Of a stretch of DNA of 64,000 bases, positions 1-18,700 are shown one piece after another. Below the pieces are notes generated by a model, which did no database searches, was not told the origin of the DNA, and saw nothing but the letters and a program-made list of their open reading frames with translations. This stretch comes from Eledone cirrhosa (lineage: Eukaryota). Numbering within the stretch: the first letter of the stretch is position 1; every line of letters begins with the position of its first letter. The stretch covers positions 150,660,001 to 150,724,000 of the forward strand of contig OZ024741.1 of assembly GCA_964016885.1 (NCBI GenBank). The letters run 5' to 3'. The translations under genes were made by a program, and so were the position numbers.

Positions 1-128
1 CATCTGATATATCTCTAAATTATATTTTGTACAATAATTACCATATGGATAATTAAATTGAAGCAAATTTCTTGTATTAATTGTTGTGTGCGAGTGGGTG
101 TGTCCTTTTTGGTAAAGTATTGTGTGAA

Positions 129-329
129 GAGTTCCAATCTTTTGGAGATTTATGGGTTAGACCTACATGTTAGCAGTGCTTCCTTTATTCACAAGTTACC
201 CACATTTCTCTCTCTGGCTCCAATATTGACTATTATGTTTTTGTTGGTGTTTTTACATTTGTCAATATGCTTTTTAATTGAGGATGTGTGTGTGTTAAGG
301 TATTCTTCATTGCAGGTGTGGTACGACTC
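129..329 (-). mobile_element. Decayed Penelope-like element remnant, C-terminal part of the GIY-YIG endonuclease region
   Basis: My minus-strand translation is ESYHTCNEEYLNTHTSSIKKHIDKCKNTNKNIIVNIGARERNVGNL*IKEALLTCRSNP*ISKRLEL. It follows the PLE endonuclease tail pattern (R..EH...SSI..H...C...I...E......IKEAL.I....P..N) and has two in-frame stops. Confidence 0.6.
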
Positions 330-534
330 CACCACCATACACACACATACATATATTTCACTGGATAATTAATTCATCAATCATTTGCATAATCAGCTAA
401 TTAATTAATTGCTAAAGTAATTTCGTCAGATGTGGGGAAAGAACTTTGACAATAAATACATTATTTCATTGATCAACTTTGACAATCAACTAAATGCTTT
501 TTTAATTGATTGATTAGTGGATTAATTATCTGAT

Positions 535-634
535 TAATAATTATTTCTAACATTAGCACAATGCCAGCAAATTGGGAGAAGGGGAACGTCAATTATAATG
601 ACCCCCAGTATTTAACTGGTACATATATTTTGAC
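535..634 (-). mobile_element. Degenerate 3' part of a tRNA-type SINE
   Basis: taataattatttctaacattagcacaatgccagcaa...cccagtatttaactggtac is homologous to the tail of the SINE copy at 1345-1410 (taataattgtttctacgttaggcacaaggccagcaa...cccagtgcattactggtac). Confidence 0.65.
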
Positions 635-749
635 TGGTAGCAAGACTCTCTAAAATTTCAATAATCGACAGTCGATCGACTTTCGTTAAATCGGACCGAG
701 GAAACAATGTTAGTCTTTCCAATTGCTAATACTATCTATCGGTCGCAAC

Positions 750-880
750 TCCAGATAGAAGGAGCAACGTGAAATAAAGTGTATTGCTCAAGGACATAAC
801 GCATCGCCCGATTCAGGAATCGAACTCACAACCTTACGATTACGAATCCAGTTCTCTTACCACTCAGCGACGCGCCTTCA
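750..880 (-). mobile_element. tRNA-derived SINE of a second family (head plus CORE-like region)
   Basis: Minus strand reads tgaaggcgcgtcgctgagtggtaagag (A-box-like), then gttcgattcc (B-box, 816-825), then gtccttgagcaatacactttatttcacgttgctcc, a CORE-SINE-like central segment. Confidence 0.7.
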
Positions 881-1245
881 ACAATATCCATGTCTAATAT
901 TATAAAACATATCGTGTGAAATGTACATTGTAGAATAAAGGCACCCATTTTAATTTCTTTAATTTTTATCAATATTTCTTTATTGCTTCTATGCTCACTC
1001 ATTGTCACGTCACGGATTATAGAATGCGCCTGCATGTGCGCTCGTATAATATACAATATGCTTGTTTGGATTTGTGTGTGTGTTACATATACGTCTAAGT
1101 ATTTTTTTATGAGGAAGTTCCAATGCTGCTTTCTTTTTCTCTATTTTTAACCAAACAAAAATAAAATGCTACACATGTTCGAAAACTAAGAAAAAAAAAA
1201 AAATTAATAGCTGCAAACGACATTCTGCTTTATTACGTAATATTT

Positions 1246-1269
1246 ATATATATATATATATATATATAT
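1246..1269. repeat. (TA)n microsatellite
   Basis: Direct observation. Confidence 0.95.
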
Positions 1270-1311
1270 TTGTTTTGCAAGGTTTTTATATGAAATCGTG
1301 TGTCGAAACAA

Positions 1312-1667
1312 ATATTGTTATACTTGGGGAGGGTCATATTGTTGTAATAATTGTTTCTACGTTAGGCACAAGGCCAGCAATTACCCAGTGCATTACTGGT
1401 ACTTTATTTTATCGACCCCGTAAGGATGAAAGGCACAGTTAACCTTGGCGCGATTTGAACTCAGAATGGCAAGAGCCGTAACTCTATAGTCAAAGCATGG
1501 CGTCCGACCCTCTACCAATACTGCCATGCGAGAAATAATAACAGAACACACTCACTGTTTGGTTGGTTTTCGCTTCTGTATCTTTTATATCTCCATAGTT
1601 AATTTATTTGGCAATCAATGTTTATCATTGACTGACCAACGGTTAAAAATACAGATATAAATATATA
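1312..1667 (+). repeat. Left arm of a long inverted repeat (partner 3317-3499), interrupted by a SINE
   Basis: 1312-1350 is the reverse complement of about 3461-3499. 1556-1667 is the reverse complement of about 3317-3428 with only 2 mismatches. Confidence 0.9.
1351..1530 (-). mobile_element. Short tRNA-type SINE (about 180 bp), same subfamily as 6577-6757
   Basis: Minus strand: tggcagtattggtagagggtcggacgcc (A-box-like), gagttcaaatc (B-box), gcctttcatccttacggggtcgataaaataaagtaccag (central domain resembling the Meta-SINE-type core, from memory), tail gtagaaacaattatta. Confidence 0.85.
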
Positions 1668-2057
1668 TGCACATGCAACGAAAGAACTTTGTTTGACTAT
1701 ATATATATATATCAAACCTAGTAACTAATAATAATAATAATAAAAATAAAATTAAAGACCTATGTCAGAGATAGCACTAGACCACCACCTTTTAATTTAT
1801 CCAACTAGACCTTCACGAATATAGGACTGCACCTTAATTAAAAGACCACACTGACCTACATACAGTCAATACATCCCTGTTTGATCTATTACATTATGCA
1901 ATGAAAAGATTTAAATGATATAGACACCCTAATAAATTCCCAATATACAACACCAACTAAATAGCAGACAACTGTGTATATAACTCCAATTACTCCAGTA
2001 TATATTATGCAACTCACTATCTTGTCATAAAAAACTTCAACTATCTCCACACAATCT

Positions 2058-2220
<163 letters not shown>

Positions 2221-3012
2221 TATACATTCTCACACATATGTATATACCTTATATTATATATACATATACTAACTATGTAAAAACTATCTAGTTATAATAA
2301 ACTAATTAAAAAATGTTTTTAACTCCCTCCAGACAAGTTTAAAAGATAACAATTATATAACCAATAATATTTTATATTTTATATACTATATAAAGATTAA
2401 TTTAAAACACTACCACAACATTAAAACAACCCTTAATTTATCAACAACCTTAATTACCTCCCTTTGTTATTAACCCCCTTTACAACTTCCTGTGTAAACT
2501 TATAAAATTAAACAACATAACGGGTCACCAACAGCTTAATAACGGTTAATACAAACCCTAGAAAAGATAATTTGTAGATAAAAAATGCATAAAATAATAT
2601 ACCTAAAATAACAACATGGCCAGTAATTCGACGGAATTTACATTTAACAAACAAACATCTATTGACTATAAACGACTTAAAATAATCCCATGGTTACTAG
2701 ATGTGAGTAACAAACAACATGCACACATACATACGAACTACAACACAAAAACACTTAAATGAAAATCACATACCCAACTCTATCACGTGCTTTGCATTAC
2801 ACCTTACATAACAAACACCTACATTATCACCATATGCCTCACTAACAAATTTCACATCTTAAACATTTAACAATAACATGCTTTAACGCCCCACACAAAA
2901 TATGTTTATTTCAACTGCATTATAACTCTTTCCTCATACATGCATTATTGACTGTATTGACTCCTGCATTGTACACCAATTTTCCTTGCTTATAACTTTT
3001 TTGCCTGTTTCT

Positions 3013-3060
3013 TTAGCTTGTGATTTTTTTAGCTTGTGATTTTTTTGCTTGTGATTTTTA
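3013..3060 (+). repeat. Three tandem copies of a ~17-bp unit (gcttgtgatttttt)
   Basis: tagcttgtgatttttt / tagcttgtgatttttt / tgcttgtgattttta. Confidence 0.85.
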
Positions 3061-3226
3061 CTTATACCTCTTACACTTCCAACCAGTGCTGCCTGTAATT
3101 GTGTTCTTTCATGCAGAACATCTTTTTAACTCCTGACTCTCCACATGATGCCTTTGACCCTAATAACAATTATGTACCCTAAATGTTCTAAATGACTGGG
3201 ATTTTAGTTAAATGTTGCGACATTCC

Positions 3227-3278
3227 TTATGCTCCGATGATTCCAGACTTCCCTCTGGAAGAAACAATTGTCAGCTAA
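3227..3278 (+). ncRNA. Minimal type-I hammerhead ribozyme motif of the PLE type, with a core variant
   Basis: gct-CCGATGA (3234-3240; consensus CUGAUGA), perfect 7-bp stem II ttccaga/tctggaa (3241-3260), GAAA, palindromic stem III acaattgt, GTC triplet (3270-3272), then agc closing stem I. Confidence 0.7.
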
Positions 3279-3316
3279 TAAATATTGTAAACTAAAATTT
3301 GATCATTTTAACACTT

Positions 3317-3499
3317 TATATATTTATATCTGTATTTTTAACCGTTGGTCAGTCAATGATATACATTGATTGCCAAACAAATTAACTATGGAGATATAAA
3401 AGATACAGAAGCGAAAACCAACCAAACATTGAATGTGTTATATTATTATTTCTGGCAATATTATTACAACAATATGACCCTCCCCAAGTATAACAATAT
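3317..3499 (-). repeat. Right arm of the long inverted repeat (partner 1312-1667)
   Basis: Reverse complement of the left arm without the SINE. Confidence 0.9.
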
Positions 3500-3531
3500 A
3501 TATATATACACACATATATATATATATATAT

Positions 3532-4066
3532 ATATGAATAACATTAGTCCTTCATCAGTGATCTTCCAACCTTCATTGGTATTTCATCGCTTTAAAAATC
3601 ATATACCTCTGGTTGGTGCGAGCAATAACTAAATAAAGTTATTGGGACAAGTAAAATAGGGTGAAGCGAGCGAGACATGTAAACAAACAAAGATGGTATT
3701 GCAACGGAAAGATAGGAAGAGACAAGTACATGATATCTATAAGCTTAAGCTTGGTGAAATCATGGACGAGAGATACAGACCATCCAACCTGGGTGAGATG
3801 TGAGCGAGAAAAGGATTTCACACAGGTCAAATGGGAGGAAGTGAGAGAGGGGGAGAAGCAGAGAGTGAGTGTAAGTGTGAGGAAGAGGCCAGCCGAGAGA
3901 GAGAGTATGACTGGCAGAGGGGGTAAAAAGAAGGTGAGAGATACAGAGAGAGGGGAAGCAGTAAGAAAGAAACAGACAGGTCGCAGCTGAGGAAAAAGTA
4001 TAAATATAAGAAAAATGAAGTGCTGCGTGGTTGCACATGGGTTACATATGAATAAAATTAGTCCTT
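3532..4066. repeat. Segment bounded by a 21-bp direct repeat with 1 mismatch
   Basis: atatgaataacattagtcctt (3532-3552) and atatgaataaaattagtcctt (4046-4066). Confidence 0.7.
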
Positions 4067-4762
4067 GCAGGAGGTTGAGACTGTGTTGATGAGTGTGGGG
4101 CTGAGAATGAATGAGACTAAAACAAAATATATGGTAGAGAATGTTGAGAAACCAGAGGGGATCACTAATGTAGGCGGGAAGCCGCTAGAATTGGTTGAGG
4201 ACTTCCTGTATTTGGGAGCAAAGATTGGGAATACGGAAGATGATTTGGTTGAGAGGAAGAGCAAAGCCTGGGCGGCGTGCCACAGCTTGAGATCGGTGTG
4301 GAAGTCGGACCTTCGTAAAGACCTGAAAATCCGCCTCTTCATTGCTTAGTGGAGTCTGTGCTGCTGTACGGGTCTGAGACTTGGACACTGACCAAGAAAC
4401 TCACTCAGATGGTGGATGTGTGCTACACGAGAATGCTGAGGATGGCTCTGAACATTAATCAGTATACACTGAGGATGAAAAACTCAGAACTGTATGGAAG
4501 CCTCCCAAAAGTCAGCCCAAAAGTGACACAGAGGAGACTGAGGTTAGCTGGACATGCTCACCGACATCCAGAGTTGATATTGCACTCAGTGCTCCTGTGG
4601 GAGCCCCTACATGGACACACTGGAAGACCAAGGTTAACGTATGTTGATTCCCTAAGGACAGACACTGGTCTGTTGGAGACGCAAGACATGGCAGCGATAA
4701 TAAGGGACAGAGACCGCTGGAGAGAATTGGTCCATGAATCTCGGGAATTTTACCCGCTCTAG
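4065..4762 (+). mobile_element. 5'-truncated RTE/RTEX-type LINE, C-terminal RT/thumb region, frameshifted near 4347
   Basis: Two consecutive ORFs give GLRMNETKTKYM...VEDFLYLG...KAWAA...LKIRLF / ESVLLYGSETWTLT...YTRMLR...RRLRLAGH...GRPRLTY, typical RTE-superfamily motifs. Confidence 0.88.
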
Positions 4763-4958
4763 AATATATGTAAATTGATAGACGAGATGAATAAATAAAC
4801 AGATATCCAGCGAGAAACAGAGAGATGGAAAATGAAATACATAAGTAGACAAATGGACATCCGGAAACAATGTTTTCCTCTCGTGCATACACTGTTTATC
4901 CAGATCTGTAGTCGATTTCAGTTCATTTCGCCTATCATTACGCATTCGTTACTGGAAG

Positions 4959-5036
4959 TCAAGACAGACGTAAATATCCGCGTATAGATCGTACTAACGG
5001 ATAGTACGATCTATACGCGGATATTTTACGTCTTGA
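4959..5036. repeat. Near-perfect palindrome: 25-bp perfect stem with a 5-nt loop
   Basis: aaatatccgcgtatagatcgtacta (4972-4996), loop acgga, tagtacgatctatacgcggatattt (5002-5026). It extends outward with small indels. Confidence 0.92.
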
Positions 5037-5562
5037 TGTAGTAGCTAAGTATATGTTATGTTTATACCTTTACTTATTTGCATAGGTAAGTATATATTAC
5101 CTGTATGTTTTGTGAAGGTACGTATATTTTCTCGTACGGTTATTTGATTGTATATGTTTGGCGTATATTTTATATATTCTGGTACATATGCTTTTGGTTA
5201 TGTGTATACGTGAGTTTTGCGTGTGTGTGAGTATGCGGGTTCGTACGTATGTAGGGTGTGTGTATATATGTACTTCGTGTTTTGGTTGACGTACGCCTCC
5301 GAACATATGTGTATTTACATGTAGGTATGTGTGTGCGCTTGTTATATACGTATTTATTTATTTATATACGTTTATCTAATTATTTGTATACACGCACACA
5401 CACACATTTATATGTGTGTGTATTTGTATACCTATGGCGAGTGTTTTCGCGTATGCTTGTGTATGTAAGTATATGGATGCGTGTATGTATTTATTTAATT
5501 TCAATTACCTCTGTATTTTATTTACTTTATTCTTAACTCTGAAGCCGAGAATCATTCGGTTT

Positions 5563-5845
5563 CCTAGTTAGAATTTTAGTCTACGACGTCAGTTATACCA
5601 TTTACGTGGTTTTGTCTTTGCGTGCAATTATTCTCTACGCTCCACATATGACGTATTATCTTCGTTTTTTCCGTTCATTGCCAGAGAACGTCTCCATGAA
5701 CCACCTAATAGAATATTAGTCTACGACCTCTTTTATACCATTAACGTGGTTTTGTCTTCGCGTACAATTGTTTTTCACCGCTCCAATAATGACGTATTAT
5801 ATTCGTTTTTTCCCGTTCTTTGCCAGGGAATGTTTCCACGAACCA
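5563..5845 (+). repeat. Diverged tandem duplication, two units of about 141 bp
   Basis: cctagttagaattttagtctacgac...gaacca (5563-5703) aligns with cctaatagaatattagtctacgac...gaacca (5704-5845). Confidence 0.88.
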
Positions 5846-5998
5846 AAGTATCGTCTTCCTGTCTTCCTCCGGTTGCAACGTTTTTTGAAATATTCACTTC
5901 TGCGTTCACAGATTGACTTTATTAGTTTCAGAAGATTCCGTTAAGGATGAAAGCAGCGATTCTTTGCTTAAACTTTAATCTGTTATTTTAATAAATAA

Positions 5999-6002
<4 letters not shown>

Positions 6003-6080
<78 letters not shown>

Positions 6081-6296
6081 CATACATATATACATATATA
6101 TATGTGTGTTTGTGTGTTTGTATATATACATATTATATGTATATTATATATATTATATATATTATATATATATACTACATACATATATATATATATGTCT
6201 GATGAAAACGTACTTAAACACCATTGTACCTTTGAAATATGTATAATAAAATATGTATTTTGATTATGAGAATATTTTTCATTTATTAATATTTTG

Positions 6297-6367
<71 letters not shown>
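6003..6367. repeat. Two (TA)n microsatellites (6003-6074, 6302-6367) flanking an AT-rich insert
   Basis: Direct observation. Confidence 0.93.
6196..6250 (+). ncRNA. Second hammerhead-like motif (degenerate)
   Basis: CTGATGA (6199-6205), stem II aaacgtac/gtaccttt (7 of 8 pairs), GAAA (6234-6237), tatgtata, aataaa. Stems I and III are weak. Confidence 0.45.
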
Positions 6368-6370
<3 letters not shown>

Positions 6371-6506
6371 AAACCACGAGTCCGGTGAGCTATTGATTCC
6401 AGTCGGGAGCGATTGATACTGATCGTACCTTGAGCTGATCGATTATGAAACTCGCGTCACAGGTGAATAAAGATAATGATGATATTTTGATAACTCGTTC
6501 CAATTC

Positions 6507-6576
6507 ATTAAAATAAAGTACCAATAATGTACTGGGTAATTGCTGGCCTTGTGTCTAAAGTAGAAACAATTATTAT
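6507..6576 (+). mobile_element. 3' fragment of the short SINE
   Basis: aaataaagtaccaataatgtactgggtaattgctggccttgtgtctaaagtagaaacaattatta matches the SINE tail. Confidence 0.8.
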
Positions 6577-6756
6577 ATTCGGTAGAGGGTCGGACGCCAT
6601 GCTTTGACGCAAAGAGTTACGGGCCTTTCCATTCTGAGTTCAAATCCCGCCGAGGAGGTTAACATTGCTTTCATCCTTACGGGGTCGATAATATAAAGTA
6701 CCAGTAATACACTGGTATAATTGCTAGCCTTGTGCCAAAAGTAGAAACAATTATTA

Positions 6757-6757
<1 letters not shown>
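6577..6757 (+). mobile_element. Short tRNA-type SINE, near full length
   Basis: ggtagagggtcggacgccatgctttgac...ttctgagttcaaatcccgccgagg...ctttcatccttacggggtcgata...gtagaaacaattattat; colinear with the copy at 1351-1530. Confidence 0.87.
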
Positions 6758-6799
<42 letters not shown>

Positions 6800-6811
6800 T
6801 TCTCTCTCTCT
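6758..6811. repeat. (TCTA)n-(TC)n microsatellite containing the left target-site duplication (6790-6811)
   Basis: atctatctatttctctctctct at 6790-6811 is identical to 12609-12630. Confidence 0.93.
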
Positions 6812-7042
6812 TAATCTAGCTGTCGTCTGTTCTACAGTGTGGATGTCATTCACTTCGCACAGAAGTTTTGTTCAAATTTATTGAGGAAATTTTGTGAGTT
6901 CAAACTTAATTTTGATACAATTGTGTAGCTTGACCCTCCGTCTGAACTGTCAGGCGGTGGGTCAGCTCATCTTTACCCCTCCTAGAGGTGAAAAACCTGT
7001 TTTAAAAAATTTTGTGTAAAAAATTTCAATCGTCTAACAGAA

Positions 7043-8923
7043 ATGTTAAACGCAGCGAACGAAAATAGTGGTGGGGGGACAGCGGTAAGAGTTGTAAGCT
7101 CGCACGCTTTAGTCCTCCCTTCCTTCCCAACTAACGTCATAGAGAAGGAAGGAAAAATGAAAATAAAAACGGACGAATCTGCGGAGGAAAAAAAATTAAA
7201 TGACGAAAACAACGAAAAAAAAAAATTTGAAAAATTGCATGACAATACTAATAACACAAACAAAGACACAACAAACAAAAAAATAACAGTTGAAAATAAC
7301 ATAATATCAGAAAACAAAGCAGACGACAAGATTTCTTTTGCACAGAAAACAAAGAAATCTTTGACTTATATAGCGGAAAACATTTCAGATGTGGTACGAA
7401 GGATCACGGACGCAAAACAATACATAAGTGAAGGTGAGAATGGTATTTTATTGGTAAAAATGCCTCAAGAATTCACGAAAGACATTGAAAGCCGAACGGT
7501 CAAGTTTCGGACCATCAACAACAGTACAAAAAAACCTGAACAGCCTTCTCAAGCAGATATCAAAACAGTACTCGCAGAAGTACTGAATGAAACAACTTTC
7601 ATAAGAAAAGACAGACTGTATGGAAGCCTAGCAATTATCATGAAGAACGAATCGGCGGCAAAAAAATGTGCTTTGTCACCGATTCGTTCGAAAAATTTCA
7701 CCTTTTATCCATCTTATATGGGGAAAAAAACTCAACGCATATGGCTGGATGCAATGATGCCAGATGTGGACTACTGCTGGCTCATAGCTGGCTTCATCGA
7801 TCCAGTGAATGACAACGTGATTTCCATTGGGAAAACCACAGGCAATGCGTTCAGTGGAACAGGTATAGAGCTGGTAGTACAAATGAAGCCTGAACGCATC
7901 GCCCAAATACCCGACAGAATCCTATTAGAGGACCACGGGTATATAAACATTAGCGTGGAGGGGAGAAGGCCGTCCTGCCATATCTGTGCAGGCAGAGGGC
8001 ACCTGAAGGCCGCTTGTCCCCAACTCAACAAAAAGAAAACCCTGCTACCAACACCAGCTCCACCACCACCACCACAACAGATAAACAAACAACAAAACTC
8101 AGTCCCACCCAACCCGTCCCTCAGTAACACCACAACACCACCACAACACAAACAGTCACAACACATTACCCCAAAACAAAATACAGGCCCACCCAACCTC
8201 TCACTCAATAAAACAACACAACCACCGCAGACACAACACACAACACAGTCTAACATAGTGACATCCATCTCCCCCACAAAGAAAACCAACACGGAAACAT
8301 TACCAGCAAACATACCTCTTCCCTCCAACACTGAAGATAACCCAACGAATTCGGAGGAAGAAACGGAGTCCTTCAGACAGATTAAAAGGAAAAAAAGAAA
8401 ACATGTGCAAAACACACAAGGACAAACAACCCCCACCCAAATCGCAACACAATCTAACAAAACAGAAAACACCCCTCCAGCAACAAACAAAACCAAACCT
8501 GCCCCTCCCCTCTTCGAAACACTCACACCATCGGAAAAAAAGACATTACACTATACTTACATCAACAGAAACAATAATAAATTAAATGAACTCATATACA
8601 ATAATCCTTCGGTACAAACCGAAGGTGTAAACTTTGTTTCATCAGAAAACCACCCACATTTAAAACTAATAAAAATCCCAATGAACCTCTACCAAAAACT
8701 AAAAAAGGATTTTAAGGAGGACGTAGGACCACCCTCTGTCAAACCCATAAACCGCGTCCTACTAAAAAGCTTTCCCCCTCCCCTTCCCCTCCCCAACACA
8801 ACTCCAAACACCCCAACCCCACCACACACCGACGACCCCACACCACCACAAGACACCCCTTCACCCAACACCCCCGACCCCATGGAAGTCGTGCAACCCG
8901 AACCCCGGGAAGCGGAAAGGTAG
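7043..8923 (+). CDS. Retrotransposon ORF1p (gag-like nucleic-acid-binding protein), 626 aa
   Basis: Uninterrupted ORF upstream of ORF2. It has CHICAGRGHLKAAC (CX2CX4HX4C), a probable RRM-like region before it, a P/T/Q-rich tail and a basic KRKKRK patch. Confidence 0.9.
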   Translation: MLNAANENSGGGTAVRVVSSHALVLPSFPTNVIEKEGKMKIKTDESAEEKKLNDENNEKKKFEKLHDNTNNTNKDTTNKKITVENNIISENKADDKISFAQKTKKSLTYIAENISDVVRRITDAKQYISEGENGILLVKMPQEFTKDIESRTVKFRTINNSTKKPEQPSQADIKTVLAEVLNETTFIRKDRLYGSLAIIMKNESAAKKCALSPIRSKNFTFYPSYMGKKTQRIWLDAMMPDVDYCWLIAGFIDPVNDNVISIGKTTGNAFSGTGIELVVQMKPERIAQIPDRILLEDHGYINISVEGRRPSCHICAGRGHLKAACPQLNKKKTLLPTPAPPPPPQQINKQQNSVPPNPSLSNTTTPPQHKQSQHITPKQNTGPPNLSLNKTTQPPQTQHTTQSNIVTSISPTKKTNTETLPANIPLPSNTEDNPTNSEEETESFRQIKRKKRKHVQNTQGQTTPTQIATQSNKTENTPPATNKTKPAPPLFETLTPSEKKTLHYTYINRNNNKLNELIYNNPSVQTEGVNFVSSENHPHLKLIKIPMNLYQKLKKDFKEDVGPPSVKPINRVLLKSFPPPLPLPNTTPNTPTPPHTDDPTPPQDTPSPNTPDPMEVVQPEPREAER

Positions 8924-8956
8924 GTCTCTACACTCTCCTTTGGCTCTGCCGCCCAC

Positions 8957-11900
8957 ATGGATGTGTTAAGAGTAGGATGTTTGAATGCACGTGGCCTGGG
9001 CTCAACTTGGAAGCAAGCAAAGCTTCTAAATGACCTCAGGTCATGTAGTATAAATGTAATGGTTATCTGTGAGACTCGAATCAGCGTCATGCGGCAGCTG
9101 GCCCCCACCTTCGATGACTTTGAGGTGCATGCATCTCTCTGTCAACCTGGAGGTGGGGGTGGGGTTGTCGTGCTGCTGCAAAAACACCTGGGTCTTGCCG
9201 TACAGGTTGTGCACTCGGACCCGGAGGGTCGTTTGTTGGTGCTAGACGTTGGCAGTAGTGAAAGTGCGGCCTTGAGACTGGTCGCCGTCTACTCCCCTTT
9301 CGGAGCTGAACGGCCCGACTTCTTCCAGCGTTTGGAGACTTTTCTGGGAACGTCGCGTTCCCTGCTTCTAGCGGGGGATTGGAATGACATCCTAGATGCA
9401 CGTTGGGACTATGCAGGAGCATGTCCTAATAGAGGGGGGTGTAACAGCCTCAAGGGGTTACTCGACCGTTTTAACTTGGTCGATAGATATCGACTAGATT
9501 TTCCAACTGTGCCTACCTGGACTTGGAGAAACCACAGTGGTCAATCTAGATCGTACTTAGATAGATTCTTAGTTAGAAGTAAGGATAGGGACATATTAAG
9601 CTGTCCAGAAATGCGCACGGTTGGCTACACGGATCACAAATTAGTGACCTGCGTGGTCAATCTCGAGAAAACACATAGACAGGGTCCCGGTTACTGGAAA
9701 CTTAATTTGTCTTTACCGGCAAAAGAGACTTACAGAAACCGGATTAGCAGATTAGTTAAGGAGAGGTTGACGGGTGCAATCGTCAACAACCGATGGTGGG
9801 CATCTCTCAAAAGAGAGATTAGAACAGAATCAATAAGCTATAGCAAGATGTTAGCTGCCAATAGGAATAGAAACGAGAAAGAATTAACAGGTAAATTAGA
9901 AGAGGCAATCAAGAGCGAAGATGTGGCCAGAGTGCTGGCATCGAGGACGGCCTTGAACCAGTTTTTCGATGCAAAGCATGAAGGCTGCGTCATTCGAAGT
10001 AAAATACGTGCTCTAGGTAATGAGGGGGCCAAAGCCGTTGGATGGGCCCGCGTGACAGAAGCTAAAAGTGGAAATCGATCCACCATCCGGTCGTTGCAAG
10101 ACGAAGATGGACGAGTGATCCGGGAGCCTAAGCAGATGTGCGAGGCCTTTCAAAAGCACTTTGCCCGATTGTTCGGGGGAGGCGAGGGTCCGGGCCGGGG
10201 CGTGAATTTCGGTCCATACCTCGACGGCCTGCCGCGTCTCTCGAACAAAGAGGCGGAGTCCTGCGAGGGACCAATCTCGGCTGATGAGATCGGAGATGCG
10301 CTGAGCCAATGCAGCAGACGCAAATCTCCAGGTCTCGATGGTATACCTTACGAACTTTATTTAGCAATGCCGGTCTTCTTCTCCGAACTCCTCGAAGCGG
10401 TCTACTGCAATTGGCAGCAGAACGGGAGAATTCCTTGTTCTGTAGCCAAGGGCGTAGTCACGCTGGTGAGGAAGGACGAGAACAAGGGGGATAGTATAAA
10501 TAATTTTCGGCCCATAACCCTGCTAAACACAGAGTTAAAGATTTTGGCCAAGGTGTTAGCAAAGAGGTTGGCGCTTGTCGTGGGTGGCCTGGTGGGAGAT
10601 GCGCAGACATGTGCTATCCCATCCAGGTCCATTCACGATAACCTCCACCTCATGCGATACATCATAGAGAGGGTTGGCAACAAACCCGGCTTCGGTGGGG
10701 CCCTGATCAACTTGGATCAGTCTAAGGCCTTCGATAGGGTCGACCATGGTTACCTGGATGCGGTGCTAGCGGCGGCTGGGTTCGGTCCTGTTTTCAGAGG
10801 CTGGATCACTGCCCTACATAGCAACCACATCTGTTCTAGGATCAAGGTGAACGGCTACCTTTCGAAGCCGTTCGAAATCACACGATCCATTCGACAGGGG
10901 TGCCCTCTCTCCTCCCTTCTGTACGTATTGACTCTCGAGCCTTTACTGAGGAAGTTGGAGTTGTTGCAGGGTATCCCCCTGGAACCAGGATTGAGCAAAG
11001 CGGTGTCGGCCTACGCCGATGACGTAACAGTAATGGTATCAACCGACTCGGAGATCGAGGCGATCGGTACCTTACTGGAGGAGTACGAAAGGTTGTCAGG
11101 AGCGAAACTGAACCGGGAAAAATCCATCGGGCTGCAACTCGGAACGTGGAGAGGCAGACCGATGCCTCCCGATGGTGTCGTCGGACACTGGACGGAGGGC
11201 CCGGTAAAGTTGCTTGGGGTCTGGTTTGGACCGGACCTCCAGGTGGAAAAGAACTGGAACGAGGTTACGAACAAGGTGTTTGCACTAACCCAGAAATGGG
11301 CCAAGTGTAAGCTGTCCCTAAAAGGCCGGGCGGAGGTGGCGAACATTTACATAGCGTCCGTCACTTACTACCGCCTGACTGTCGTGCCTTGCCCTAAGGA
11401 AACACTCACCACCATGGAACGCATGCTCTTCCAATTTCTTTGGAAGAAGCGTCCTCCTATGGTGAGAAGATCCATCTGCTGCCAACAACCTTCGAAAGGA
11501 GGGCTGGGGATGCCGTGGTTGATGATGCGTAGGCACGCATTAAGGCTACGGCACCTACAGGTATTCCTCACTGGTCAACCGGTGTGGGCTCCGTTCGTGA
11601 AACGAGCCTTTCCGAGACTCGTCTCACTCACCGAGCTACAGTCCTGGGTCAAGCAAAGATCCGGAAAACTGGGAGACTGGCACACTGAGTGTGCTCAGGC
11701 GCTCAGGGCTCTCTGGCAAGCGGGCCGGGCCATCGGTGGAGAATCCACCTCATCATTCTATAGAGGGCTGGTGGCTAGCAGGGGCGATGACACCCTTGGA
11801 GAGTCGCTGGACATGGAAGAAGACGAACTGGCCAGCCTGTTCGGTAGGACTTTCGGCCCAGGACCAATGGACAACTTCCAGAAGTCACTGGCCTGGCAGT

Positions 11901-12394
11901 GCTACCGAGGGGCTCTACCCGTTCGAGAGAGGCTCTACAGACACGGGCGCCCGGGCAGGGATCCCTCAAAAAAGATTTGCCCTAGATGCGTGCGTCACGA
12001 AGAAACCGTGGCGCACGCATTGGTGCAATGTCCGGGCGTGGCTGATCTGTGGGGCTACGCCGAACAACTGCTGTCGCGGGTGGCGCCGATTAAATTGACA
12101 GCCGAGTCCGTGATGACAATCAAACCGCCTCCCCTCTTCACAAAGGAAGCAAAGGCGGTTTTTCTGTGCGTAATAGCCATGTTGAAAGAGGTTGTTTGGT
12201 GGACACGATTGAAAGGTCTGAGGTCAGGCAACTTCCTCTCTGGCCATAGTCTGGTCTACTTCTTCCGATATCACTTCGGAAGAAGGATAAGAATGGAGAG
12301 AGAGGTGCTTGGCCACAGGCAGTTTTATGAAAGGTGGGTGATAGTGGCGAGAATGGCTCGTGTAAATGGGCCTTCTCTGTATACCATCCTGTAG
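8957..12394 (+). CDS. Retrotransposon ORF2p: APE endonuclease, reverse transcriptase and C-terminal zinc finger, 1145 aa
   Basis: APE motifs LNARGL, ICETR, AVYSP, AGDWN, TW, YLDRF, TDH. RT motifs KSPGLDG, FRPITLLN, DQSKAFDRVDH, RQGCPLS, YADD. C-terminal CPRC-X8-H-X4-C. GPGYWKLN and GGLG motifs are typical of L1/Tx1. Confidence 0.97.
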   Translation: MDVLRVGCLNARGLGSTWKQAKLLNDLRSCSINVMVICETRISVMRQLAPTFDDFEVHASLCQPGGGGGVVVLLQKHLGLAVQVVHSDPEGRLLVLDVGSSESAALRLVAVYSPFGAERPDFFQRLETFLGTSRSLLLAGDWNDILDARWDYAGACPNRGGCNSLKGLLDRFNLVDRYRLDFPTVPTWTWRNHSGQSRSYLDRFLVRSKDRDILSCPEMRTVGYTDHKLVTCVVNLEKTHRQGPGYWKLNLSLPAKETYRNRISRLVKERLTGAIVNNRWWASLKREIRTESISYSKMLAANRNRNEKELTGKLEEAIKSEDVARVLASRTALNQFFDAKHEGCVIRSKIRALGNEGAKAVGWARVTEAKSGNRSTIRSLQDEDGRVIREPKQMCEAFQKHFARLFGGGEGPGRGVNFGPYLDGLPRLSNKEAESCEGPISADEIGDALSQCSRRKSPGLDGIPYELYLAMPVFFSELLEAVYCNWQQNGRIPCSVAKGVVTLVRKDENKGDSINNFRPITLLNTELKILAKVLAKRLALVVGGLVGDAQTCAIPSRSIHDNLHLMRYIIERVGNKPGFGGALINLDQSKAFDRVDHGYLDAVLAAAGFGPVFRGWITALHSNHICSRIKVNGYLSKPFEITRSIRQGCPLSSLLYVLTLEPLLRKLELLQGIPLEPGLSKAVSAYADDVTVMVSTDSEIEAIGTLLEEYERLSGAKLNREKSIGLQLGTWRGRPMPPDGVVGHWTEGPVKLLGVWFGPDLQVEKNWNEVTNKVFALTQKWAKCKLSLKGRAEVANIYIASVTYYRLTVVPCPKETLTTMERMLFQFLWKKRPPMVRRSICCQQPSKGGLGMPWLMMRRHALRLRHLQVFLTGQPVWAPFVKRAFPRLVSLTELQSWVKQRSGKLGDWHTECAQALRALWQAGRAIGGESTSSFYRGLVASRGDDTLGESLDMEEDELASLFGRTFGPGPMDNFQKSLAWQCYRGALPVRERLYRHGRPGRDPSKKICPRCVRHEETVAHALVQCPGVADLWGYAEQLLSRVAPIKLTAESVMTIKPPPLFTKEAKAVFLCVIAMLKEVVWWTRLKGLRSGNFLSGHSLVYFFRYHFGRRIRMEREVLGHRQFYERWVIVARMARVNGPSLYTIL

Positions 12395-12412
12395 GTAAAG
12401 AAGTAAAGGAGA

Positions 12413-12477
12413 GGGGAGCACCTTCTCCATGTGCTCCCCGGGCAAAGGATTGCACACTTTTTCGGGGGTGTGTGCAA
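12413..12477 (+). other. Two tandem stem-loops in the retrotransposon 3' UTR
   Basis: ggggagcac/gtgctcccc (12413-12439, 9 bp) and ttgcacac/gtgtgcaa (12450-12477, 8 bp plus interior G-U pairs). Confidence 0.7.
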
Positions 12478-12608
12478 CCCCCATCACGTCCCCTCCCTTT
12501 TGAGGTTATTTTCGATTATTTTCATGTTACACCCTTTTTACTCGATTATATGTAAACTCCCCCTTTGTATTTGTCCCTTCTTTTTATGCCTTTATGGTAA
12601 ATAAAGAA

Positions 12609-12637
12609 ATCTATCTATTTCTCTCTCTCTCTCTCTC

Positions 12638-12709
<72 letters not shown>

Positions 12710-12740
12710 GAGAGAGAGAGATTATATATATATATATCTT
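12609..12740. repeat. Right TSD (12609-12630) running into a (TC)n-(TA)n-(GA)n microsatellite
   Basis: Direct observation. Confidence 0.93.
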
Positions 12741-13899
12741 TATCGAGCCGTCTTCGGATTTTAGTCTTCACATTTATTATTACTATATATATATATACAC
12801 ACAAGTATGAATGTAGGGAAAGTGTATATGTTTGTATGTATGCATATGTGTATATACGGATGGATATGCATGTTTGTATGTATTTATGTATGTGAGTGTG
12901 TATGTATTATGTGCGTACGTATGTATGTTTTTATGAATGTCTGTATTATGTATGTATATATGTATGTATACTAATTTGGTTCTTAAGGCGTATATAATTT
13001 TCATCAGTCCCTCTCCCTGTCGCTTCCCTCTCAGTCTCTATCTTTCTCCTCTTCTGTACATCTCTCTTCTTTCCTCTGTATATCTCTCTCTTCTGTATGT
13101 ATCTCCCCCTCCCCTCTCTCTCTTTCTATTATTCTTCCCTAGAAGTAGACCATTTTTTGGTTAAGCTAAAGGAATCAGGAGAATTAAAAGATAAGACGAT
13201 AGGAAATGTATTTATATGTTTCTAAGATAATTATGAAGTTTTATATTCCGTCTCATTACTCATGAGGATCCCACTCAATGATATCGTCTCGAGTGGAGGG
13301 AGCATCTTTCCTCTGATAACGATGTTTCATTCTAGAACTAGCTAAAAACCAATACAGTTAGATTTTCTATTCCGTCGAGAATCTTCTTCAATATCACAAA
13401 TATTTCATTAAACCTTTCATAAAAGCATACTTAGATATGCTTTATGAAATTTTGATAAAAAAAGAAAATGTTGTTGTTGATGGTAATAATCTATATTGTA
13501 ATATCTGTACAACATTTTTTTGTCCGTCTGTCAAAAACATTTAAAGCTTTTAAGTAAGAATTCATGGACCACAATTGACAAAAGACATTAACAAATTGGG
13601 GGGATGAAGGCTAATGTTCTAAACCGCTTTCATTCATGTAACATTCAGCGTTCTCTGCCAATAATGTTGTCTACCCCCTCTCTCCCCTCTCTCTCTTCCT
13701 CTCCCTCTTTCTCTTTCTCCCTCTCTCTCCCAATATATAAACATCTTTTATATTAGCTTCTTTTGCTCCAAAAGGAACATTGGGCGACTTTCGTTGTTTC
13801 TGGAGATAAGGTTCCTAACCTCGGGCTCCACTTCTCTACCTTTTCAATTTGAATATTAATATAATATAAGAAAACAATGAGGAAAAAACAAAGACACCT

Positions 13900-13905
<6 letters not shown>

Positions 13906-13986
<81 letters not shown>
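13906..13986. repeat. (CA)n microsatellite
   Basis: Direct observation. Confidence 0.97.
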
Positions 13987-13997
<11 letters not shown>

Positions 13998-14767
13998 GTG
14001 TGTGTGTCTATATGTATGCATGTGTGTGCGACGTGTGGTGTGTTGTGGGTGTGCATCGATATTTATATACATACACATTATGAATCCTTCAACGAAATTA
14101 CAATAATATAACGAAATTTCTCGTTAAGTTGGGGGTTTGGAACATAACTCAAGGAAAGTTTCGTAGAAAAATTATTCTGGAAGGTTTAAATTTAAACAAA
14201 CATTTTCATACAAATATTTTTTTCATCATAGAACCAGGGGCAGTTTCAGATGGGGGTTGGTATGAAAAGTGTTTGGCTATACGACTGTATGAAGCTGTAT
14301 GTAATATATATATGTCAGGTTGACATGTTAGTAATACAAATGTCTACGTGAATACCAATGTAGTACCATGATTCCAGTACCTCAAGGAATCTAGGATTCC
14401 ACTCAAACCATTAGAAACTTGTAAAAAACAACTTCAAAGAAAGATCTTTGATGGAATATTTGAAAACTTTCGCCACTTATTCTGATTATCTTCCAAGCCA
14501 TACTCTCTTGATAATCTCCATGTTTGCCATCATTAAAGAAACTTCCATTATAGAAAAAGGTCTTTGTCTTCTTTATTTTTCTATCTCTGCCCCTTGCTCT
14601 CTTTCTATTACTCTTTCCTTTTCTATCACTCCTTCTCGTTTCCTATCACTCTTTCTCTTTCTCTACTACGCATACTCTTACTACCACTCTTTCTCCCTCC
14701 ATCACTCTCTACTTTCTTTCTCTATTCCTTTTCTTTTTCATATTTTCAGCTCTTCTTTCTATCTTTT

Positions 14768-15481
<714 letters not shown>

Positions 15482-15762
15482 ACAATCACAACCTCATTGC
15501 ATATTGATTCAAAATCAATTTATATATTTATTTCTTCATTTATTTACCTATCTATTTCAATTTATTCTGTGAACTCTTCCATTCCAAACTAAATAGACTT
15601 GTCTATAGAAATCAGTTTCTACGTTTCACAGAGAGCTCTCTCTCTCTCAACAACATTCTCTTTACCACTTTCTCTATATTACTCTCTCTATATGAACCTC
15701 TCTATATCACTCTCTCTATATGAATCTATCTATAATAATAATTCTATATGACTATATTATTC

Positions 15763-18700
15763 TCTCTACACCACACTCTCTATACCTCCCTCTATACCAC
15801 TCTCTATACCTCCCTCTACACTACACTCTATACCTCCCTCTATACCACTCTCTATACTTCCCTCTACACCACTCTCTATACCTCCCTCTACACCACTCTA
15901 TCTATAGCTCCCTCTACACCACTCTCTATACCTCCCTCTACACCACTCTCTATACCTCGAACTACAGCACTCTCTCTATACCTCCCTCTACACCACTCTC
16001 TCTATACCTCCCTCTATACCACTCTCTATACCTCCCTCTACACCACTCTCTATACCTCCCTCTACACCATTCTCTCTATACCTCCCTCTATACCACTCTC
16101 TCTATACCTCCCTTAAACCACTCTCTCTATACCCCCCTCTATACCACTCTCTATACCTCCCTCTACACCACTCTCTCTATACCTCCCTCTACACCACTCT
16201 CTCTATACCACCCTCTATACCACTCTCTATACCTCCCCCTACACCACTCTCTACACCTCCCTCTACACCACTCCATACCTCCCTCTACACCACTCTCTAT
16301 ACCTACCTCTACACCACTCTCTCTATAGCACCCTCTATACAACTCTCTATACCTCCCTCTATACCACTCGCTATACCTCCCTTTACACCACACTCTATAC
16401 CACCCTCTCCACCACTCTCTCTATACCTCCCTGTACACCTCTCTCTCTATACCTCCCTCTACACCACTCTCTCTATACCTCCCTCTACACCACACTCTCT
16501 ATACGTCACTATACACCACTCTCTAAACCCCCCTCTACACCACTCTCTCTATACCTCCCTCTACACGACTCTCTATACCTCCCTCTACACCACTCTCTCT
16601 ATACCTCCCTCTACACCACTCTCTATACCTCCCTCTATACCACTCTCTCTATAGCTCCCTCTATACCACTCTCTATACCTCCCTCTACACCACTCTCTCT
16701 ATACCTCCCTCTACACCACTCTCTCTATACCACCCTCTACACAACTCTCTATACCTCACTCTACACCACTCTCTCTATACCACACTCTACACCACTCTCT
16801 ATACCTCCCTCTACACCACTCTATACCTCCCTCCACGCCACTCTCTCTATACCACCCTCTATACACCTCTCTCTATACCTCCCTCTATACCACTCTCTAT
16901 ACCTCCCTCTATACCACTCTCTATACCTCCCTCTACACCACTCTCTATATACCTCCCTTAAACCACTCTCTATACCTCCTTCTACACCACTCTTTATACC
17001 TCCCTCTACACCACTTTCTCTATGCCTCCCTCTACACCACTCTCTATACCTCCCTCTATACCACTCTCTATACCTCCCTCTACACCACTCTCTCTATACC
17101 TCCCTCTACACCACACTCTCTATACTTCCCTCTATACCACTCTCTATACCTCCCTCTACACCACTCTCTCTATACCACCCTCTACACTACTCTCTATACC
17201 TCCCTCTATACCACTCTCTATATCAGCCTCTATACCACTCTCTATACCTCCCTCTATACCACTCTCTATACCTCCCTCTATACCACTCTCTCTATACCTC
17301 CCTCTATACCACTCTCTATACCTCCCTCTGCACCACTCTCTCTATACCTCCCTCTACACCACGCTCTCTATACTTCCCTCTACACCACTCTCTCTATACC
17401 ACCCTCCATACCACTCTCTATACATCCCTCTACACCACTCTCTATACCACGCTCTATACCACTCTCTATACCTCCCTCTACACAATTCTCTATACCTCCC
17501 TCTATACCACTCTCTATACCTCCCTCTACACCACTCTCTCTATACCTCCCTCTGCACCACTCTCTCTATACCTCTCTCTACACCACTCTCTCTATACCTC
17601 CCTCTACACCACTCTCTCTATACCTCCCTCTACACCACTCTCTATACCTCCCTCTACACCACTCTCTTTATACCTCCCTCTACACCACTCTCTCTATACC
17701 TCCCTCTACACCACTCTCTATACCTCACTCTGCACCACTCTCTCTATACCACTCTCTATACACCTCTCTCTATACCTCCCTCTATACCACTCTCTACACC
17801 TCCTTCTACACCACTCTCTCTATACCTCCCTCTACACCACTCTCTCTATACCACCCTCTATACCACTCTCTATACCTCCCTCTACACCACTCTCTACACC
17901 TCCCTCTACACCACTTTATACCTCCCTCTACACCACTCTCTCTATACCTCCCTCTACACCAGTCTCTCTATACCACACTCTATACCACTCTCTATACCTC
18001 CCTCTATACCACTCGCTATACCTCCCTTTACACCACACTCTATACCACCCTCTCCACCACTCTCTCTATACCTCCCTGTACACCTCTCTCTCTATACCTC
18101 CCTCTACACCACTCTCTCTATACCTCCCTCTACACCACACTCTCTATACGTCCCTATACACCACTCTCTATAACCCCCTCTACACCACTCTCTCTATACC
18201 TCCCTCTACACGACTCTTTATACCTCCCTCTACACCACTCTCTATACATCCCTCTACACCACTCTCTATACCTCCCTCTATACCACTCTCTCTATACCTC
18301 CCTCTATACCACTCTCTATACCTCCCTCTACACCACTCTCTCTATACCTCACTCTACACCACTCTCTCTATACCTCCCTCTACACCATTCTCTATACCTC
18401 ACTCTACACCACTCTCTCTCTATACCACACTCTACACCACTCTCTATACCTCCCTCTACAGCACTCTATACCTCCCTTCACGCCACTCTCTCTATACCAC
18501 CCTCTATACACCTCTCTCTATACCTCCCTCTATACCACTCTCTATACCTCCCTCTATACCACTCTCTATACCTCCCTCTACACCACTCTCTATATACCTC
18601 CCTTAAACCACTCTCTATACCTACCTCTACACCACTCTCTCTATACCTCCCTCTATACCACTCTCTATACCTCCCTGTACACCACTGTCTATACCTCCCT

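Follow-up and report, generated by a model that had tools for sequence, protein, structure and literature searches.

The window analysed here is a 64,000-nt stretch of the Eledone cirrhosa genome (contig OZ024741.1, positions 150,660,001 to 150,724,000, forward strand), and all coordinates below refer to it. It contains a Tx1-type long interspersed nuclear element (LINE) of 5.8 kb (6812–12611, plus strand), with both open reading frames (ORFs) open, which is inserted between a TATC tract and a TC tract. This position raises two questions. First, which sequence served as the target, the TATC repeat, the TC repeat or the junction of the two? Second, what determines the exact site of insertion within a repeat? 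A comparison with the other copies in the genome answers the first question: the target is the (TATC)n, or GATA, repeat, entered at one fixed step of the unit and in one orientation, and is neither the TC repeat nor the junction. For the second, we consider it quite probable that the APE endonuclease of the element introduces a nick in the AGAT strand, opposite C|TATCT, from which reverse transcription is primed.

Exact-pattern counts in the 3.0-Gb genome found 1404 exact 28-nt 3′ ends and 608 exact 25-nt 5′ ends of the family. The sequence-only reading of this locus had proposed to look at the flanks of the other copies, and genome-wide these are not random. Among the 1404 3′ ends, 1371 continue ATNTAT, which is found at 2.0% of background positions; 825 continue ATCTAT, and 1252 continue ATNTATCT (counted with a search key one base shorter, so that 1404 is an approximate denominator). 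On the other side of the element, TCTAT is located 8–26 nt upstream in 271 of 291 minus-strand 5′ ends (93%, against a background of 2.5%). This count was taken as one row per locus on the minus strand, and the plus-strand count, which multi-counts, was excluded. The upstream TCTAT cannot be explained by an RNA tail. AGAT repeats in the opposite orientation were found upstream in 0 of 75 copies. The background, 200 kb in 20 arbitrary 10-kb stretches, contains TATAT 8071 times and TATCT 703 times (an approximately 11-fold difference), and yet about 119 3′ ends at most lie at sites with TAT followed by another base, which gives a roughly 100-fold preference for TATCT over TATAT. The same 200 kb contains 14 (ATCT)3+, 30 (TC)6+ and 246 (AT)6+ tracts.

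One target type is thus present in about 89–98% of the 3′ ends and 93% of the 5′ ends. Under the rule of Kojima (2015), an element is sequence-specific when more than 20% of its flanks are of one target type (PMC4494074; this and the other papers cited below are drawn on through parts of their text), and by this rule the family is a sequence-specific Tx1 family. The (TC)36 tract next to the window copy (12620–12692, Tandem Repeats Finder) is incidental to the insertion site, since few other copies adjoin TC: (TC)4 occurs within 30 nt upstream in 4, and downstream in 3, of the first 75 copies. The proposal of the sequence-only reading that TC repeats or a TCTA/TC junction are the target therefore has to be abandoned, with at most 33 of the 1404 3′ ends able to run into TC.

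The position of a junction inside a repeat is normally ambiguous. Here a heritable 3-nt tip at the 3′ end of the element serves as a natural marker that locates it. An exact 22-nt repeat flanks the window copy (6790–6811 and 12609–12630), and it had first been read as a perfect target-site duplication (TSD) of 22 bp. The exact repeat is real, whereas the length is not: the true TSD is 19 bp (6793–6811, starting with TATCT, and 12612–12630 with the same letters; register from 38 informative copies), and the remaining three bases (12609–12611, here ATC) belong to the element. These three bases, which follow AATAAAGAA, are copied from the donor and overwrite the target. In a comparison of copies the tip is ATC in the window copy and its like, ATA in an older subfamily and ATG in a small offshoot. 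The first sample of 3′ ends, obtained with an ATCT-containing query, missed the ATA-tip subfamily, which was revealed by the pattern counts; to offset this bias, 40 contig C1 ends with a continuation other than ATCTAT were fetched, of which 38 continue ATAT. On a tree of 83 copies the tip state requires 3 changes, compared with 19–26 in 300 shuffles. All 10 ATG-tip ends were fetched as a forward test, and 9 of them, on 7 contigs, share 12525C, a variant seen in 1 of 109 others. In addition, the upstream copy of the TSD has C where the ATA tail has A in 12 of 15 informative sites, including L180, L193 and L198, whose TSDs reach unique DNA. As the tip follows the copy tree and mismatches the target, the junction is placed at C|TATCT and the TSD of the window copy at 19 bp. 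At TATAT sites it is the target that the flank matches at position +4 (7 of 38 sites), and the RNA therefore templates nothing past +3.

The TSDs were measured in 115 copies fetched whole; from these and the window copy, 84 full-length sequences were excised. Identity guided the choice of some of these copies and the tip that of others. With a chance match of up to 3 nt into the element start allowed, a TSD of at least 12 bp is present in 86 of the 115. Thirty-eight of the copies are informative, their TSDs reaching into unique DNA, and 31 of these have TSDs of 16–20 bp, the commonest length being 19. In an unanchored search the match begins at flank base 3 or 4 in 19 of the 23 cases with a difference between tail and target, and 34 of the 38 informative copies have C as the base preceding the junction.

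How could such an exact junction arise? Following the established scheme of target-primed reverse transcription, the endonuclease would cut the bottom strand at 5′-AGATA^GATA-3′. The AATAAA signal is located only 6 nt from the element end, so transcripts likely end inside the downstream TATC; judged from this anatomy, the transcript would pass AATAAA into the target repeat before being cleaved. Its UAU(C) bases could then base-pair with the 3′ end released by the nick, and the 3-nt tip would be the point at which copying begins; this sequence of events would account for the precise junction as well as for the lack of poly(A). The second cut would fall 16–20 nt downstream. Each TSD would recreate the target at both ends, and arrays would thereby accumulate. 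Annealing-assisted initiation, in which short RNA–target pairing takes part, has been proposed for SART1Bm and R1Bm (PMC7265360). The specificity itself is likely set by the APE domain, as far as the copies allow one to judge. In L1 grafting experiments a hairpin loop of the endonuclease contributes to target choice (PMC1950540), and in the sister families described below this loop is conserved as N-x-S-G-x-S-R.

Alternatively, RNA–DNA pairing could be the main source of specificity, with a lax endonuclease nicking AT-rich simple repeats and only those nicks that pair with the UAUC repeats of the read-through transcript being primed. Target positions +1 to +3, +5 and +7 indeed do not vary in any of the 38 informative sites, although partly by construction; normal cleavage after an AATAAA this close to the end would land in the downstream repeat; and the proposals for SART1Bm and R1Bm provide a precedent (PMC7265360). 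We nevertheless regard this alternative as unlikely. Conservation extends to target bases upstream of the junction, which have no way of pairing with the RNA (C at −1 in 34 of 38; TATC at −4 to −1 in 32–34 of 38, part of which the repeat tract gives free), templating stops at +3, and the TSDs do not grow regularly by additional units. An element that carries its own (TATC)n tail and makes microsatellites at random sites would account for the 9 of 31 truncated copies with TATC downstream and unrelated DNA upstream; for these, deletion during or after insertion is the simpler explanation, and with TCTAT upstream of 93% of the 5′ ends and TSDs of one or two units reaching unique DNA on both sides (L160, L180, L193 and L198), a self-carried tail is very improbable. 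Kibi-like targeting of (TC)n or of the TCTA/TC junction, for which the TC tracts adjoining the window copy, L116, L117, L134, L162 and L194 might speak, and random insertion with survival only in repeats are scarcely credible and already refuted by the flank counts given above, because TC-led ends are so few although (TC)6+ is commoner than (ATCT)3+ in the background, and because survival bias cannot yield a base-exact phase and a single orientation in copies 0–0.4% apart.

Several observations count against insertion at a fixed step of (TATC)n by the APE endonuclease. No TSD of at least 12 bp in the expected register was found in 29 of the 115 copies, and 15 of the 115 (6 of 84 full-length and 9 of 31 truncated ones) are without TCTAT upstream. 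Two copies, L162 and L194, continue into TC repeats, and TA-type sites hold about six of those with an ATA tip. When the tree is built from the 3′ 1.5 kb only, the tip needs 10 changes (18–25 in shuffles). The background rests on 200 kb, and protein recognition and RNA–DNA pairing may each contribute a share of the specificity. The copies that lack a TSD or an upstream TCTAT have likely suffered a deletion when they inserted or later. A recurrent sequence that does not look like a LINE (ending in ATCATACAC...GTGTATA) precedes the TATC tract upstream of L032, L054, L072, L090, L098 and L184, and seems to be a further repeat family that carries a TATC tract internally and often acts as host.

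The window copy was received by a (TATC)10.8 tract (6757–6799, Tandem Repeats Finder). The element starts with TAATCTAG, a start common to the full-length copies, and a 5′ untranslated region (UTR) of 231 nt (6812–7042) is followed by ORF1 (7043–8923, 626 aa) and ORF2 (8957–12394, 1145 aa). The C-terminal half of ORF1 is rich in Pro and Thr, and a zinc knuckle, CX2CX4HX4C, can be read directly at 7976–8017 (aa 312–325), the Pfam zf-CCHC match being under the cut-off (E 0.32). ORF2 comprises an APE endonuclease (aa 23–227), a reverse transcriptase (RT; aa 512–755) and a C-terminal zf-RVT/CCHC region; the Pfam matches to Exo_endo_phos and RVT_1 exceed the cut-off, with zf-RVT just under it. The catalytic residues N10, E39, Y112, D141, N143, D202 and H227 as well as the YADD motif are all present, align with those of human L1 ORF2p and are near-invariant across 42 open ORF2 copies. 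ORF calling, Pfam and this residue check thus bear out the two open ORFs and catalytic motifs noticed at first sight, and the same is true of the 3′ end with almost no poly(A): the 3′ UTR (12395–12608) has AATAAA at 12600–12605 and no poly(A) after it. The RT motif SIRQGCPLSS, in contrast, is not copy-specific damage as had been suspected. It occurs in 70 of 74 readable full-length copies (84 examined, 10 unreadable), RSIRQGCPLSS is family-wide, and SIRQG and PLSS variants are also found in homologues.

A CCHC zinc knuckle in ORF1 is a feature of the Tx1 clade. With phmmer at the same database size, ORF2 scores 465 and 407 bits against two U2-anchored Keno-type ORF2s but 174 bits against human L1 ORF2p, which supports placement in the Tx1 clade.

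On sequence identity the family is very young, because copy L113, on a different contig, shows 0 substitutions relative to the window copy. Another measure is that 35 copies, from among the best matches rather than a random sample, differ from the window copy by at most 0.4%; the 40 contig C1 copies that do not continue ATCTAT are 92–99.7% identical to it. Both ORFs are open in 27 of the 84 full-length copies. In ORF2, the ratio of nonsynonymous to synonymous polymorphism (pN/pS) is 0.22 for variants found in at least 3 of 40 copies (14 synonymous, 10 nonsynonymous) and 0.50 for singleton variants, a lower value for shared variants being expected when functional copies propagate. Together with the flanks genome-wide, the identity of the copies lends strong support to the view of the sequence-only reading that this is a young, microsatellite-specific Tx1-like family. 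L063 and L073 are mosaic, their first kilobase being ~7.5% and their last kilobase <1% diverged, which points to template switching or recombination among subfamilies. In runs labelled as four other species (X5–X8) there are pieces ~99–100% identical to the element over 6812–12611; these may reflect close relatives, contamination or horizontal transfer.

The family does not use its target alone. The 3′ end of another element lies just upstream in 37 of the 115 copies, and in 20 of 20 neighbouring stretches fetched there are ORF2 relatives, ~60–87% identical and on the same strand. TATC tracts stand at the element ends in 19 of these 20, with tips of ATA, ACA, ATT, ATC, AGA, AGT or ATG. Sister families are thus stacked head-to-tail on the TATC target. 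For one of them (ORF2 ~85% identical, tip ATT), TATCT follows 523 of 532 ends, and in contigs from runs labelled as three further species (B, C and F) relatives' 3′ ends are followed by TATCTATC. Among named proteins, the nearest homologue comes from Argonauta hians, with 68% identity in the RT region. In a tree of 84 RT sequences, composed without an L1 outgroup and without Tx1L, Kibi, Koshi, Dewa or Mutsu, the lineage forms one clade (support 1.0), and the Argonauta hians protein and P0001 are adjacent to it (0.999). An alignment scan returned distant relatives only, mostly 21–33% identical, among them two Keno-type anchors; an ENA group is 52% identical, cluster look-ups gave almost no names, and a metagenome scan with P0012 gave no matches. 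It is tempting, though decidedly tentative, to imagine that Tx1 elements without poly(A) have radiated across octopods with a target not described before; read-through into their own GATA target would be a built-in priming guide, endonuclease and pairing together would give base-exact integration, and the spread of the elements would duplicate GATA repeats, scatter them and build multi-family head-to-tail arrays across cephalopod genomes.

How does this family compare with known elements? Waldo and Mino are R1-clade elements. Microsatellite-specific elements include Waldo on ACAY, Mino on AC, Kibi on TC, Koshi on TTC and Dong on TAA (PMC3812793), crocodilian Tx1 families on (TTCC)n/(TTTC)n (PMC4494074), and Togen, which is related to NeSL, on TG (PMC4640811). 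Waldo, Mino, Dong and Togen are, like the present family, microsatellite-specific non-LTR elements, with other units (PMC3812793, PMC4640811). Kibi, Koshi and the crocodilian families share with it the build of a two-ORF APE-type LINE with one preferred microsatellite unit; their units are pyrimidine-only on one strand, whereas TATC/GATA is mixed purine–pyrimidine, and the host here is octopod-like, the comparison being one of descriptions rather than of named proteins. Membership of Kibi, which inserts in (TC)n, is rejected by the at most 33 of 1404 ends, and membership of Koshi or the crocodilian families, on (TTC)n, (TTCC)n and (TTTC)n, by the 1371 ends that continue ATNTAT. Keno membership is likewise rejected, the 3′ flanks of the 115 copies being, by eye, repeats or varied DNA and not U2.

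Two Keno-type elements were found in U2 snRNA genes (Rfam) on metagenome contigs, at L224:4675-4885 and L226:5815-5977. Their 3′ flank, AGTATCTGTTCTT, contains TATCT near the junction, as does the target of the window family, but they differ in having A-rich tails and a U2 target, whereas the window family has no poly(A) and a TATC target. A sister relation to Keno, which TATCT in U2 might suggest, is unsupported in the RT tree, and since L224 and L226 are not sister to the window lineage there, the likeness may be due to chance. SART1Bm, TRAS1 and R1Bm also insert in a fixed phase, in a short repeat, and swaps of their endonucleases change the target (PMC7265360). They differ in belonging to the R1 clade and in having targets that are telomeric or in rDNA; SART1 also depends on a long poly(A) (PMC7265360), and the window family shows none.

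Microsatellite-targeting Tx1 elements are therefore already known, and a TATC target was not found described in the literature consulted. Thirteen recently active L1-Tx1 families with 421 insertions have been reported in Octopus vulgaris (PMC13282606), in the main text of which the word 'target' is absent, and the consulted part of PMC8869645 contributes nothing further. No TATC/GATA-specific LINE was found in the parts of the literature searched, a scope outside of which lie Repbase, the 2004 Kibi/Koshi paper, and the supplements and Fig. 3 target labels of PMC4494074.

The present family extends the short list of microsatellites that serve sequence-specific LINEs as targets, and does so with unusually strong statistics (~1,400 ends) and with intact, identical copies. 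The many sister endonucleases with the same target offer a route to how APE domains read DNA and to the share of RNA pairing in this. For work on cephalopod genomes, this makes GATA microsatellite loci insertion hot-spots for a 5.8-kb element, and such insertions can interfere with marker assays and make GATA tracts seem larger than they are.

Other features of the window deserve brief mention. Inverted repeats of 141 nt at 1527–1667 and 3317–3457, 95% complementary and 1649 nt apart, may mark the two ends of a non-autonomous DNA transposon. A broken C-terminal fragment of another LINE ORF, with an LYGSETW motif and a frame change, is located at about 4060–4765; we take it to be RTE-like. Two tandem units resembling short interspersed elements (about 6380–6759) end in AGAAACAATTATTAT and abut the TATC tract (42-nt direct repeat); within positions 1–16000, ARAGORN detected no tRNA. 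From 15764 to 64000 the window consists of a 24-bp satellite, with ~1,937 copies at 84% matches and a strong strand skew, which covers three quarters of the window and extends past its end.

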